DNA of 41,628 nt from a virus. A program made the translations under genes and the position numbers. Where the stretch lies: the IMG/VR virus record IMGVR_UViG_3300019468_000010, one strand, 5' to 3'. Each line of letters opens with the position of its first letter. Positions within the stretch are counted from its first letter, which is position 1. This document shows, piece after piece, positions 1 to 41,628 of this stretch. The notes under the pieces are model-generated. The model did not search any database, was not told the DNA's origin, and was given only the letters and a program-made list of their open reading frames with translations.

Positions 1-127
1 GTATAGGTGAACAGTTCCTTGCCTATGAATAAGTTGTACCACTTGTTAAGTTCAGCCCAAGTCTTAGACTTTAACTGTGTATCAGTATTAGCGGTAACAA
101 CTCCCCTTGTATTCTCATGTGTAGCAA
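1..127. repeat. Terminal direct repeat (left copy). It is identical to 41502-41628 and is an assembly overlap of a circular or circularly permuted molecule.
   Basis: Base-by-base comparison of the first and last 127 nt shows identity. The repeat lies inside the terL reading frame and is in phase. Confidence 0.95.
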
Positions 128-398
128 TAGCAAATAGAATTAAAATCGATGAAAACGCTGACTTACCAATACCATGACCTGATGCAACTGCAATTTGAAT
201 TGCTTTCGCCAATGATTTGCCCTTGCGTAGTTCTTCACCTATTTTCTTGAAAGTCTTTACTTGCCATTCATCAGGGCCGTCAAAGTTTTCAAGCGGTGTT
301 CCTTTTTCTCCCCAAGGAAAAGAAAAGTATGCAAAGCCTAATGGATCATGCGTAAACGACCCCAACGCATCAATCAGTTGTGCCTTGTTGTACTTCAT
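1..398 (-). CDS. terL: Terminase large subunit, N-terminal part. The ATG is at 398-396, and the frame runs off the window start and continues at 41501.
   Basis: Manual translation gives MKYNKAQLIDALGSFTHDPLGF...AVASGHGIGKSAFSS, with Walker A GHGIGKS. The frame is open to base 1 and in phase with the ORF at 40445-41628. The joined gene is 1455 nt (484 aa). Confidence 0.9.
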   Translation of the reverse strand, partial: MKYNKAQLIDALGSFTHDPLGFAYFSFPWGEKGTPLENFDGPDEWQVKTFKKIGEELRKGKSLAKAIQIAVASGHGIGKSAFSSILILFAIATHENTRGVVTANTDTQLKSKTWAELNKWYNLFIGKELFTY

Positions 399-822
399 CT
401 GATTTCACCCTTGCTTGCTTCATTCGGTCAGATATATCAATCTCAATTTCTGCATCAAGTTTCACTTTGTCAGTAAATAGCATGTGCCGTTTGCCTAACA
501 ACTCGGCTGCTTTGGTTCTATCTGCAATTGAGGCATCCAAACCAAATGCATCTTTTTCTTCGCCATTCATTACCTTAGTTAAGTACTCCAATACTTCATC
601 AGCAGTTGCGATTGTGTTTTTACTACGCTCGTTCATGACTGCATCTATATATTGTCGAACGTTAACTTTTGTCAACAACTGACTACCTTTACTTCTTGCC
701 GTCTTTTCTGAATATCCAGCCGTAATTGCACTTTGTGTTCCGTTGGTGGTCTTAACGTATTCATCAGCAAATATGCGTTCTTTCTTAGTTAGTTTTTGTG
801 CTAATTCATTTATACTCGCCAA
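370..822 (-). CDS. terS: Terminase small subunit (Terminase_2-like)
   Basis: The N-terminus KKERIFADEYVKTTNGTQSAITAGYSEKTARSKGSQLL is the typical HTH motif of small terminases. The gene overlaps the terL start by 29 nt. Confidence 0.85.
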   Translation of the reverse strand: MASINELAQKLTKKERIFADEYVKTTNGTQSAITAGYSEKTARSKGSQLLTKVNVRQYIDAVMNERSKNTIATADEVLEYLTKVMNGEEKDAFGLDASIADRTKAAELLGKRHMLFTDKVKLDAEIEIDISDRMKQARVKSDEVQQGTTD

Positions 823-824
823 TG

Positions 825-1172
825 TTACTCACCACCTTTATATGTTCTAACTAAAAATAGCAGTACTTCATGTTGTTTAGTACTGCTATACTCACTTTCT
901 TTCTTATAGAGTTGTCCTTGCTTAAAGGTCTTGCCCTTTTTGTACTTATGAGGAAATGTCAGTTTGTATTCTTCCTCTGTGTACATTCGATTAACGATAT
1001 ACACCTTGCAAGGCTTATCGTATTTACTCCATGATTGCCTTACATCGACTACATACCGCCTACCATTCATTTGTAATGCTTTAAGCAATTTCTTTATTGT
1101 AGGTTGATAATTCACATCAAGCACCACACAATACCGACTATAATCAACACACCGCACACAATGGCTAGGCAA
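825..1172 (-). CDS. Hypothetical protein. The start is uncertain; a GTG at 1115 overlapping the upstream stop is plausible.
   Basis: ORF in the operon directly upstream of terS. I recognise no motif. Confidence 0.5.
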   Translation of the reverse strand: MPSHCVRCVDYSRYCVVLDVNYQPTIKKLLKALQMNGRRYVVDVRQSWSKYDKPCKVYIVNRMYTEEEYKLTFPHKYKKGKTFKQGQLYKKESEYSSTKQHEVLLFLVRTYKGGE

Positions 1173-40238: not shown

Positions 40239-40239
40239 A

Positions 40240-40431
40240 TTAACCGCCTAATGTTGTTTTGCCTGTTGCTTGATTTAACGCACTAGCCAAGATGGTACTA
40301 TCATAACCTGTTTTCTTGCGCTTTTTATCGGTGAACCATTGTTCATCTTTCTTTTGCGTCATGTCATCAGTCTGTGCGACTGGTGCAGGTGCTGGTGTAG
40401 TAACACTTGGTGTTTTAGCTTTCATACACAT
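40240..40431 (-). CDS. Small hypothetical protein between terL and the portal gene
   Basis: AAAGGGGGAA RBS. 63 aa, ending in KTTLGG. Confidence 0.5.
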   Translation of the reverse strand: MCMKAKTPSVTTPAPAPVAQTDDMTQKKDEQWFTDKKRKKTGYDSTILASALNQATGKTTLGG

Positions 40432-40444
40432 TCACATTCCCCCT

Positions 40445-41628
40445 TTACCCAAATGGTTTGTACTCTGTATTCGCTACTCTTCTGTGATTGCCATTTACTT
40501 TTTTAGTGACCCTAAATGCAAAGGTCAAGGCTAATGCATCGCCTTTGTTCGGTGATGGTAGCCCTCGTTCTTTCATATCCTTTTTGCTCTCTAGTTGAAT
40601 ACGGCCATTCTTATCAATGATCGCTTCTGGCCCTACTAGGTCATCATACAATCCTTGCTCATTAGGAATTGAACCGCCCTCTTTTAGCCATTCTTTCATC
40701 TCGCCCCACATATAGGCTCTCATGTTGAGATACATATCATTAGGTGCTTTACCACCAAAGGCAACTAACCGCCATCGTCTACCCATTGATTTGCCAATAC
40801 TGTAAATACCTGTTCCGTACCCTTGGTCAATGAATACCGCATCAGCTTTGTATTCATCTTCGAATTGTGCTATGAGGTTAGCCATACGCATATCATCGTC
40901 ATTCTTTTCAATCGTTGCCAAGCACTTCATGGAATAGCCATTACGCATCACGATTTCTAATGTATCGCCACCAGTCCATGCAGGGTCTACACCGATAATT
41001 ACAGGTAGGTTATTAAACTCACCAACTCTGTACATTCGCTTTTGTGCTTCATCAACAATTGATGCGGATATAAATTGTGTATCCGATGCACTAGGGAATA
41101 TCCCTCTTACACGCACTTTTACAAAGTCGCTATCCTCACCATGAATATCAACCCATTCTTGCAACTTCGCTTTGTTTGAGATTTTAACAGTGCGGCTATC
41201 TATCTGATAGGTAGTCCAATATGCACGATGTTTTCTAAAACATTCTCTAAACCTACCACTATTACGTGTAGGGTTTCCAAACACGCACCATATAATCTCG
41301 GTTTCCTTATCTGTTAATGCACCCTCTGTTACTTCCCAAATCTTATCGGAAATAGCTGATGCTTCATCAAATATGATAAGTATTCTGTTTCCTTGATTGT
41401 GCAAGCCTGCGAATGCTTCTGGATTACTTTCGCTCCATGGAATAGCATCAATCCGCCATGTTTTCTCATACTGTTTATCAGCACTAAACAATGCAGTAGC
41501 AGTATAGGTGAACAGTTCCTTGCCTATGAATAAGTTGTACCACTTGTTAAGTTCAGCCCAAGTCTTAGACTTTAACTGTGTATCAGTATTAGCGGTAACA
41601 ACTCCCCTTGTATTCTCATGTGTAGCAA
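40445..41628 (-). CDS. terL: Terminase large subunit, C-terminal part. The frame is open to the window end, and the last 127 nt duplicate bases 1-127.
   Basis: Walker B ILIIFDEAS and a nuclease-domain region VIIGVDPAWTGGDT...FIDQGYGTG. In phase with the 5' part at 1-398. Confidence 0.9.
   Translation of the reverse strand, partial: ATHENTRGVVTANTDTQLKSKTWAELNKWYNLFIGKELFTYTATALFSADKQYEKTWRIDAIPWSESNPEAFAGLHNQGNRILIIFDEASAISDKIWEVTEGALTDKETEIIWCVFGNPTRNSGRFRECFRKHRAYWTTYQIDSRTVKISNKAKLQEWVDIHGEDSDFVKVRVRGIFPSASDTQFISASIVDEAQKRMYRVGEFNNLPVIIGVDPAWTGGDTLEIVMRNGYSMKCLATIEKNDDDMRMANLIAQFEDEYKADAVFIDQGYGTGIYSIGKSMGRRWRLVAFGGKAPNDMYLNMRAYMWGEMKEWLKEGGSIPNEQGLYDDLVGPEAIIDKNGRIQLESKKDMKERGLPSPNKGDALALTFAFRVTKKVNGNHRRVANTEYKPFG
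41502..41628. repeat. Terminal direct repeat (right copy), identical to 1-127
   Basis: Direct comparison. Confidence 0.95.

Follow-up and report, generated by a model that had tools for sequence, protein, structure and literature searches.

IMG/VR virus record IMGVR_UViG_3300019468_000010 is a DNA sequence of 41,628 nucleotides with a GC content of 37.1%, and all of it (the window) was analyzed here. The window is very probably the complete excised form, closed at its phage attachment site (attP), of a functional temperate podovirus that infects Veillonella of the V. atypica group. Public metagenomes contain this one sequence both integrated and free.

Positions 1-127 of the window match positions 41502-41628 exactly, which leaves a unit genome of 41,501 bp (1-41501). 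The closure point lies inside the 484-aa ORF of the terminase large subunit (TerL), and the reading frame is kept across the junction. When the end is joined to the start, the joined sequence aligns with G001, an IMG/VR prophage record cut from a host contig and 84-96% identical to the window, as a single unbroken high-scoring pair of 3,003 nucleotides at 91% identity. An integrated copy is present in JGI contig Ga0242627_100023 (65,605 bp), where it spans record positions 15,546-57,065. This copy is 41,520 bp long, or 41,501 bp plus a 19-nucleotide core, and is 100.000% identical to the window over the 11,142 and 7,019 nucleotides compared. The preliminary description of this DNA had taken the 127-nucleotide overlap to close a 41,501-bp circle, and the TerL frame, the contiguity of G001, and the length of the integrated copy all bear this out. 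The usual word length of assemblers is 127, and the overlap is therefore the mark of a circular assembly path. Its position in the middle of the TerL gene likewise shows that it is not a physical terminal repeat.

The attachment core is the 19-nucleotide sequence AACATATCAATATATTATA, located at 15872-15890, 68 nucleotides past the integrase stop codon. Prophage G001 starts and ends with this sequence as a direct repeat. The region first proposed as attP, 15831-16002, was correctly placed and contains the core, which can now be narrowed to the 19 nucleotides given. Four forms of the site were found that have the one core in common. The attP form is present in the window and in locus L011, attR in three loci (L009, L010, and L012), attL in two (L140 and L142), and the empty chromosomal site, attB, in V. 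atypica KON (L056) and in six further loci (L014, L016-L018, L020, and L021). The attR loci were found by exact-sequence look-up of the window integrase, and the attL loci by way of the 190-aa protein at the opposite side of attP. Logan contig SRR5637668_52 carries the same phage-to-phage junction as the window. The repeat of 19 nucleotides is far shorter than the assembly word, and the attP junctions of the window and of SRR5637668_52 must therefore derive from excised or replicating molecules. The tyrosine integrase recombines the core with the identical site in the chromosome.

Three of the contigs found with the integrase sequence continue past the core into host genes encoding a GIY-YIG protein, a peptidyl-prolyl isomerase (PPIase), a Cof-type hydrolase, DUF1653, BrnQ, a molybdopterin oxidoreductase, Ldh_2, and a lactate permease. 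The host genes on the attL side are those for DUF1934, argS, pyrG, AhpC, and Rrf2. The integration site is thus located between the 3’ end of the GIY-YIG gene and the start of the DUF1934-argS-pyrG string. The empty site, with the exact core and both flanks, is present in V. atypica KON, four more genomes of the atypica group, V. tobetsuensis, and V. caviae. In a single Hadza-derived Veillonella metagenome-assembled genome (MAG), the site is filled by a relative of the phage. The core is absent from approximately 30 loci of the V. parvula type.

By eye, attB lies in the likely promoter of the DUF1934-argS-pyrG string (window 15872-15890; L140 6930-7045; L056 approximately 7840-7950). Read in the direction of the operon, the core starts with TATAAT, located 24 nucleotides ahead of the ribosome-binding site. 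The empty site has TTCAAA 17 nucleotides upstream, and after integration the phage DNA supplies TTGATA at 18 nucleotides. Upon integration, the phage arm may thus replace the -35 element of an essential operon.

The host genes flanking the integrated form identify the host. The Cof-type hydrolase beside attR is 97-99% identical to its counterparts in Veillonella MAGs and in V. atypica KON ATCC 17744, 92% to that of V. tobetsuensis, and 85-86% to those of V. parvula, V. rogosae, and V. caviae. Outside the genus, its identity to other proteins does not exceed 45%. The GC content of the host flank is 38.4%, against 37.1% for the phage. A collinear prophage of approximately 42 kb is present in the cultured type strain V. 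tobetsuensis ATCC BAA-2400 (G004, contig C10, approximately 106992-149334). Its virion genes are 95% identical to those of the window and most of the remainder 85-94%, whereas the integrase end reaches only 75%. The low identity of the integrase end indicates that this prophage sits at another site. A 15-nucleotide direct repeat, TATAATTAAAGATAT, is found at both of its predicted borders (L097 and L098) and is a candidate attachment core; the repeat is AT-rich, which makes it weak evidence. Among 82 genomes of Veillonella species, the capsid gene and the PF12236 portal co-occur in the same nine.

Matches to CRISPR spacers were searched with window positions 29000-41500 against DNA of the genus Veillonella, and the matching regions were inspected for arrays with regular periods of 66-76 nucleotides. 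Five Veillonella genomes have spacers against the phage, all within verified arrays, with two to four mismatches and a chance expectation of at most approximately 2e-7 per spacer. Genome G051 has two 30-nucleotide spacers, with two and three mismatches to the TerL and nozzle genes, respectively. Genomes G042 and G021 have one spacer in common, with two mismatches to TerL. A 40-nucleotide spacer of G046 matches the Bbp19-like gene with two mismatches, and a 36-nucleotide spacer of G052 matches the major capsid protein (MCP) gene with four. The array of G051 (L143, G051:C1:818500-823500) has at least 28 copies of a 36-nucleotide repeat, GTTTGAGAGTAGTGTAATTCTGTAAACCTCTAAAAC, separated by 30-nucleotide spacers, two of which are directed against this phage group. 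The GTTTGAGAGTAGTGTAATTCTGTAAACCTCTAAAAC repeat is also present in G042 and G021, together with the one spacer in common. The preliminary description had placed the host in the Negativicutes, as a Veillonella-like organism, and had proposed attB sites, related prophages, and spacers as checks. All three lead to Veillonella: the site falls in this genus and is empty in V. atypica KON, the relatives are in Veillonella genomes, and the five spacer-bearing genomes belong to it.

One further candidate spacer target, window positions 32419-32452 in the gp14-like gene, was rejected. This 34-nucleotide stretch matches approximately 35 Veillonella genomes at 88-91%, with one site per genome. In G017 the site is inside a gene for a 375-aa lipoprotein, and no repeat array is nearby. 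The lipoprotein looks like an efflux-pump adaptor judging from its sequence, and the match is probably a shared coding stretch for an alanine- and glutamine-rich coiled coil.

The genes were annotated with Pfam, PHROGs, NCBIfam, and a PDB sequence search, and 57 window proteins were compared by tblastn (threshold 1e-3) with T7, BPP-1, and Cobetia phage Carin1. All genes are on the minus strand except one block of four lysogeny genes. TerL runs from 398 down to 1 (5’ part) and continues from 41501 down to 40445 (3’ part); it matches phrog_2 (1.2e-42) and is 50% identical to the Carin1 terminase. The terminase small subunit (TerS) is encoded at 370-822 (PF03592, 3.4e-33). The portal, a head-tail connector of the T7 type, is located at 38517-40238 and matches PF12236 over its full length (5.5e-140). 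The head genes occupy 35972-38516 and comprise a 71-aa ORF, a Bbp16-like candidate cement protein, the MCP (36564-37559; PF20911, 2.7e-129; 54% identical to BPP-1 Bbp17), a scaffold/protease-like protein (37573-38196), and a Bbp19-like protein, with a match to phrog_458 in this block. The Bbp16-like and Bbp19-like proteins are in syntenic positions, and their matches to PF21190 and PF25181 are below the cut-offs (20.6 against 27.1 bits and 19.5 against 25 bits).

The tail nozzle (775 aa) and adaptor (197 aa) are encoded at 33006-35920 and match phrog_376 (1.8e-179) and phrog_394 (3.5e-52). The nozzle also matches PDB entry 8ck1 (6.4e-88), as does the adaptor, which aligns with the connector of that entry (6e-18). 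The entry is a tail structure by its molecule names, and the annotation of the Carin1 record agrees with its being the tail of Carin-1. Internal virion proteins of 723 aa, 199 aa (gp14-like), and 167 aa (gp13-like) are encoded at 29774-33037 (PF24072, 2.1e-6; PF11090, 1.3e-5). The matches to T7_Gp13 and T7_gp14 are barely over their cut-offs, and the 723-aa protein is placed in the gp15 position by its position and size only. A 2,820-aa internal virion (ejection) protein with MuF_C and ART-like cargo domains follows at 21309-29771 (PF18819, 2e-17); the ART match is weak. Residues 1900-2760, approximately, of this protein are homologous to BPP-1 bbp10 and to Carin1 gp32 (2,854 aa), which have the same gene position. 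The tblastn spans are 1915-2759 against bbp10 and 2130-2745 against gp32. Residues 1400-2800, approximately, are kept in six other Negativicute prophages. The PDB sequence search gave no match to either the 723-aa or the 2,820-aa protein.

The tailspike or fibre (826 aa, 18772-21252) has a conserved N-terminal virion anchor and a pectate-lyase-like body (PF12708, 1.4e-6). Its residues 14-123 match the tail fibre of 8ck1 (1e-9), and its N-terminus also matches those of BPP-1 bbp9 and Carin1 Dpo31. The lysis cassette (16318-18292; phrog_23091 and phrog_10797) consists of membrane proteins of 180 aa and 67 aa, an endolysin, and a 190-aa protein anchored at its N-terminus. The endolysin (219 aa, 16894-17553) is a VgrG3-C-like hydrolase (PF21277 VgrG3-like_C, 2.7e-38). 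A small ORF adjoining attP (16063-16272) is taken from the ORF list and is a moron candidate; it has no family match, and three contigs have a predicted gene of 54 aa in this position.

None of the 57 window proteins matches T7 by tblastn. Seven to eight match BPP-1 (8 of 57) and Carin1, and the gene order is the same. The virion module is accordingly best described, from its protein families, as BPP-1/Carin-1/epsilon15-like and not as directly T7-like. The preliminary description had reported T7 order and sizes, of which the architecture, the adaptor and nozzle sizes, the portal family, and the gp13 and gp14 profiles hold, with no direct match to T7. It had also given the fibre a gp17-like N-terminus; the homology at this end is real and is to the tail fibres of Carin-1 and BPP-1, not to T7 gp17. 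It was right that the phage has no RNA or DNA polymerase of its own: Pfam scans found no such domain in any ORF, and the ORFs of more than 300 aa are all otherwise assigned.

Judging from these families, the particle would be of the BPP-1/Carin-1/epsilon15 type, with a T7-type portal, an epsilon15-type capsid, an adaptor, a nozzle, and a depolymerase-like spike. The DNA would cross both membranes through the ejected internal proteins, namely the gp14-like, 723-aa, and 2,820-aa proteins. The C-terminal third of the 2,820-aa protein may be the conserved part of the channel, with its N-terminal and middle parts carrying enzymatic cargo.

The lysogeny module is the only block on the plus strand (13830-15804). 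It consists of an XRE repressor (13830-14222; PF13443/PF01381), a 73-aa membrane-like ORF, an M78/ImmA-like metalloprotease (14480-14740; PF06114, 7.8e-6), and the tyrosine integrase (14749-15804; PF00589). This arrangement has the features of the ImmR/ImmA type, namely an XRE repressor near an M78 protease with an HEXXH motif, beside an integrase. The protease is only 86 aa long, approximately half the usual size, and retains HEIGH at residues 45-49. The ORF between the repressor and protease genes is hydrophobic. Both the repressor and the ImmA-like protease had been named at the outset, and the Pfam matches and the intact motif agree with this. The switch of ICEBs1 (ImmR/ImmA) and of many Firmicute phages serves as the model, by which the XRE repressor would maintain lysogeny and the metalloprotease would lift it.

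The leftward early operon starts on the minus strand at 12898-13674 with a Cro-like helix-turn-helix protein (13462-13674; PF01381, 3.3e-14), a 79-aa ORF, and an HTH_17 excisionase-like protein (12898-13194; PF12728, 8.3e-9). Genes for an HNH endonuclease, a NinB-like protein, a Rad52-like annealing protein, and a DUF1351 protein are at 10339-12647, all by Pfam. The replication initiation pair (8680-10120) is composed of a replisome organizer (9299-10120; PF09681, 9.8e-33) and a putative helicase loader (8680-9378; phrog_2289, 1.5e-5). The Phage_rep_org_N and DUF1351 domains of the preliminary description were both found by Pfam, and the loader it called G39P-like has a helicase-loader match among the PHROGs, which is weak. 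The N-terminal domain of the replisome organizer shares 65-70% identity with its counterparts in siphophages of Streptococcus and Enterococcus, with 106 of 183 records from Streptococcus. The DUF1351 relatives are from Enterococcus, Lactobacillus, and Fusobacterium phages. Single-stranded DNA-binding protein (SSB; 7893-8279; PF00436, 2.8e-31), a RusA-like resolvase (5920-6294; phrog_244, 1e-18), and dUTPase (5228-5647; PF00692, 2.6e-30) are also encoded. The DnaD-like replisome organizer and the loader would recruit the host helicase, assisted by SSB, the Rad52-type annealing protein, and RusA, in a phage that appears to work without its own polymerase.

A DNA methyltransferase gene is split (window 6301-7078). 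Its main ORF (6301-6810; phrog_2882, 3.1e-58) encodes only the C-terminal 169 aa, corresponding to positions 89-251 of phrog_2882. A putative late transcription regulator of 152 aa is located at 2077-2535 and matches the transcriptional regulators of phrog_36 (5.8e-11). Its earlier designation as a DUF1492-like activator stands as far as the PHROG goes, and Pfam and NCBIfam gave no match. Between this gene and the packaging genes is a stretch of approximately 510 nucleotides (1564-2076) with no credible ORF and no Rfam family. No tRNA and no Rfam family were found in the window, ten unassigned proteins have no NCBIfam match, and ten small ORFs have no PADLOC match.

Several points weigh against a complete and functional podovirus of the Negativicutes. 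The phage is known here from its sequence, and its short tail is deduced from homology only. At least one accessory gene, the methyltransferase, is not intact in the window copy. The 723-aa protein in the gp15 position has no homologue detectable by Pfam, PHROGs, PDB sequence search, or NCBIfam. Holin and spanin can be assigned tentatively, by position, the repressor/ImmA mechanism and the transcription program are putative, and packaging may be headful or may use terminal repeats. Finally, the term class Negativicutes stands here for the class of V. atypica KON together with the presence of LpxC in four of four tested members.

The split methyltransferase, and a phage known from sequence and not from particles, would both suit a defective or cryptic prophage that makes no infectious particles and whose circular contig arose from excision or assembly only. 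This is improbable, since the ORFs for packaging, head, tail, ejection, lysis, replication, and lysogeny are all open, the methyltransferase is an accessory gene, 100.000% identical copies occur in integrated and free form in separate samples, and the spacers of five Veillonella genomes show that the phage group has been met as an invader. Less probable still is a linear T7-like genome in which the 127-nucleotide overlap would be a physical terminal repeat in direct orientation. Terminal repeats of T7-like phages are of roughly such a size; against this, the overlap lies within the TerL coding sequence, the integrated copy measures exactly 41,501 + 19 bp, G001 is contiguous across the closure point, and 127 is a common assembler word size. 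A host in another low-GC, two-membraned group (Fusobacteria or Proteobacteria), with the Veillonella signal secondary, could draw on the one DUF1351 relative in a Fusobacterium phage and on the isolated virion relatives, which come from phages of Proteobacteria. It is the least credible of the three, as the attachment junctions, empty sites, related prophages, adhesin cargo, and CRISPR spacers are all in Veillonella. An excised, functional Veillonella podovirus remains the preferred reading of the window.

The two halves of the genome have, by sequence similarity, different nearest neighbors among isolated phages: phages of Proteobacteria and cyanobacteria for the virion genes, and Firmicute phages for the early genes. 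Isolated phages with a related portal (275 records), nozzle (214), or capsid (103) infect Proteobacteria and in a few cases cyanobacteria, with no Firmicute among the listed hosts. The half of the genome that was searched by megablast gave no match to isolated phages. The chimeric build reported in the preliminary description is upheld to this extent; it is a lineage-wide design across the class and not a one-off recombinant.

In an even draw from the class of V. atypica KON, the PF12236 portal is encoded in 45 of 301 genomes (15%), with genome sizes of 1.4-5.4 Mb, and LpxC in all four of the portal-positive genomes tested. The portal is found in 0 of 351 genomes of a phylum sample around Thomasclavelia (Bacilli type), and in 0 of 351 and 1 of 401 genomes of two samples around Peptacetobacter and Veillonella, which include Clostridia. 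The latter two overlap and are handled as one phylum; they are therefore not specific for Negativicutes, and the class-level sample was used instead. Prophage regions were taken from six of the class-level positives, with GC contents of 44-56%, and every one is collinear with the window in the order TerL, portal, Bbp19, scaffold, MCP, adaptor, nozzle, (gp13, gp14), giant protein, and spike. An integrase match is nearby in four of the six.

Two single genomes from this survey are described here. G1019:C1 has three separate PF12236 portal genes (2265086, 946903, and 1370042), and several podovirus prophages of this type may share that one chromosome. In G440:C4 (L149 and L150), a phage-sized contig of 45.7 kb carries a weaker PF12236 portal (3e-55) and several ORFs of 600-1,030 aa. 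Only dUTPase is in common with the window, and the G440 genome has neither LpxC nor BamA. The contig probably comes from an unrelated phage, perhaps a different podovirus, and was binned with the MAG of a one-membraned Firmicute; alternatively, G440 may be a real exception to the envelope rule.

Trees were constructed for the portal (29 sequences, LG+C20) and the capsid. The T7 proteins have no BLAST match, and the trees therefore lack an outgroup and are midpoint-rooted. All 20 Negativicute portals are on one side of a branch of weak support (86/59). In the capsid tree, Negativicute copies form three clusters. Ten Veillonella capsids form one clade (99/95), located beside KL4, Basilea, Stappiaceae, and BPP-1 with weak support. 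Forcing the Negativicute capsids together costs 21 log-likelihood units, with a borderline p of 0.0497 in the approximately unbiased (AU) test. Worth noting is that portal and capsid identities differ within single prophages. In G003:C46 (L125) the portal is 95.5% identical to that of the window and the capsid only 64%, and in G026:C1 (L126) and G052:C7 (L127) the portals are 71% and the capsids 53% identical. The head genes of Veillonella prophages thus appear as a mosaic.

In our reading, the virion module belongs to a long-resident, recombining lineage with some exchange of capsid genes and is probably not a recent import, and the data do not settle this. In a recent chimera, a Firmicute-type Veillonella phage would lately have taken the whole virion module from a phage of Proteobacteria. 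Such an origin is favored by the capsid, which is 54% identical to those of BPP-1 and Burkholderia KL4 and thus closer to them than to most other Negativicute copies (36-50%), and by the three Negativicute clusters of the MCP tree with the AU value for their joint constraint. We consider a recent chimera unlikely, because the portal is only 30-35% identical to that of any Proteobacteria phage, the 20 Negativicute portals are on one side of their weakly supported branch, genomes of 44-56% GC throughout the class carry the same module, the AU value is borderline, and no nucleotide match to isolated phages exists for the half of the genome compared. An extension of the long-resident lineage, put forward tentatively and as more doubtful than not, is that the module is old and tracks the two-membrane envelope in Firmicutes. 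It would then predate the Negativicute radiation, perhaps descending from a two-membraned Firmicute ancestor, and would have been lost together with the outer membrane.

The cargo of the phage includes a trimeric autotransporter adhesin (TAA) of the YadA type, 425 aa in length, encoded at 3886-5163 on the minus strand (PF05658, 6.1e-12; PF05662, 2.3e-6; PF03895, 2.4e-7). It is composed of a signal peptide (a hydrophobic leader, by eye), head repeats, a stalk, a C-terminal four-strand anchor, and a 34-residue coiled tail. The preliminary description had already assigned it to this type, and Pfam located the head, stalk, and anchor. G001 has the adhesin at the corresponding position, as do the prophages of V. 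tobetsuensis (96%) and of G067 and G038 (61%, approximately 9 kb from the capsid genes). In 77 of 82 Veillonella genomes, chromosomal TAAs have an anchor 45-55% identical to that of the phage protein. By the likeness of the anchor and the retention in one place, the adhesin is host-derived and conserved in the lineage. V. atypica KON has BamA (PF01103), and the outer-membrane requirement of the adhesin can therefore be met in this host. A lysogen would display a short, phage-encoded trimeric autotransporter on its outer membrane, with altered aggregation of the lysogen and interference with adsorption as candidate effects.

Eib proteins of E. coli are prophage-borne trimeric autotransporters and resemble the present adhesin in that a YadA-type protein with head, stalk, and anchor is carried as cargo by a temperate phage. 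The autotransporters encoded in Veillonella chromosomes mediate auto-aggregation and co-aggregation with streptococci (PMC11633186). Those proteins (VtaA-I and Hag1) are approximately 3,000-7,000 aa long (PMC11633186), against 425 aa for the phage adhesin, which in addition has a short coiled tail after the barrel.

The phage has a Firmicute-type early region and belongs to a widespread, uncharacterized Negativicute branch of BPP-1/epsilon15-type phages. Its value is that of a starting point for experiments and not of a new principle. Veillonella is a human commensal and belongs to the core of human oral and gut communities, in which it has a bridging role. Literature searches for podoviruses of Veillonella or Negativicutes gave nothing specific, the open literature on Veillonella phages is almost empty, and the isolate phage collection yielded no Veillonella phage that has been cultured and sequenced. 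The exact attachment sites are defined here, V. atypica KON ATCC 17744 offers the site in its empty form, and V. tobetsuensis ATCC BAA-2400 is a cultured strain lysogenic for a relative of 95% similarity, so that the phage can be induced, propagated, and used as a genetic tool. Lysogeny may convert the surface properties of this biofilm organism, as the conserved adhesin suggests.

This virion and DNA-ejection apparatus, otherwise known only from phages whose hosts have two membranes, is common among the two-membraned Firmicutes, with 15% of the sampled species positive, and was not found in approximately 700 sampled one-membraned relatives. This distribution bears on whether phage particle types follow the host envelope or host ancestry. 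If the lineage is indeed old and tracks the envelope, its prophages would be an independent marker of outer-membrane history in Firmicutes, and the published view of Negativicute phages as simply similar to phages of Firmicutes with one membrane would need qualifying. Rands, Brussow and Zdobnov surveyed 485 Negativicute prophages and described them as lambdoid (long-tailed) and Firmicute-like (bioRxiv 10.1101/606087). The word podovirus is absent from that survey. The present phage resembles the surveyed prophages in host class, Firmicute-type early genes, and the placement of lysis genes after the tail genes. It differs from the published maps in that the virion module of its group has isolated relatives only on Proteobacteria and cyanobacteria.

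Among isolated phages, T7 (Autographiviridae) is similar in the sizes of gp11 (196 aa, against 197 for the adaptor) and gp12 (794 aa, against 775 for the nozzle), in the architecture, in the PF12236 portal family, and in profile-level similarity to gp13 and gp14. T7 is virulent and has RNA and DNA polymerases, whereas the present phage is temperate and has neither. Membership in the Autographiviridae in the strict sense was rejected, as no single-subunit RNA polymerase domain and no structural match to T7 were found. Temperate podoviruses with no RNA polymerase are already well known, BPP-1 and epsilon15 being examples. Among the traits of the BPP-1/epsilon15 type, those present in the window are a PF12236 portal, a PF20911 capsid, an adaptor and a nozzle after the head genes, a large internal protein followed by the fibre, and an integrase with an attachment site. 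Phages epsilon15 of Salmonella and phiV10 of E. coli (Uetakevirus) are temperate podoviruses of this kind with the same head-tail order. Their MCPs are 42-50% and their portals 33% identical to those of the window, and PF20911 is named for epsilon15 gp7. They differ in their enterobacterial hosts, their O-antigen-converting cargo, and their early region.

Carin1 is the best overall match of the packaging and tail genes, with identities of 50% for TerL, 45% for MCP, 35% for the portal, 32% for the nozzle, 31% for the adaptor, 30% for the gp14-like protein, 32% for the spike N-terminus, and 28% for residues 2130-2745 of the giant protein. It differs in its marine gammaproteobacterial host, in having no annotated integrase, and in its unrelated early genes (DnaC-like, RecT). 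BPP-1 (Rauchvirus, with Burkholderia relatives KL4 and BcepC6B) is a temperate podovirus of approximately 42 kb with a tyrosine integrase at the end of the prophage map, as in the present phage. Its genes are ordered as in the window: TerS, TerL, portal, Bbp19, protease/scaffold, MCP, Bbp16, adaptor, nozzle, internal proteins, giant protein, fibre, and lysis genes. The identities to BPP-1 are 54% for MCP, 32% for the portal, 29% for the nozzle, 28% for the adaptor, 23% for the C-terminal third of the giant protein, and 26% for the fibre N-terminus. The giant protein is 2,052 aa long in BPP-1 (bbp10), 2,854 aa in Carin1, and 2,820 aa in the window, at the same position. BPP-1 and Carin1 each have a protein of approximately 720 aa (719 aa in Carin1) where the window has one of 723 aa.

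The present phage does not belong to Rauchvirus in the narrow sense, as it has no replication domains of the BPP-1 type, only 8 of 57 proteins match, and megablast of half of the genome gave no match. The genome of BPP-1 includes genes for a DNA polymerase, a primase, and a helicase, as well as a cI/UmuD-like repressor and a diversity-generating retroelement, none of which is present in the window. In their place the window has a replisome organizer with its loader and an XRE/ImmA-like switch, in a Firmicute host. BPP-1 integrates at tRNA-His, and the phage of the window in a likely promoter region.

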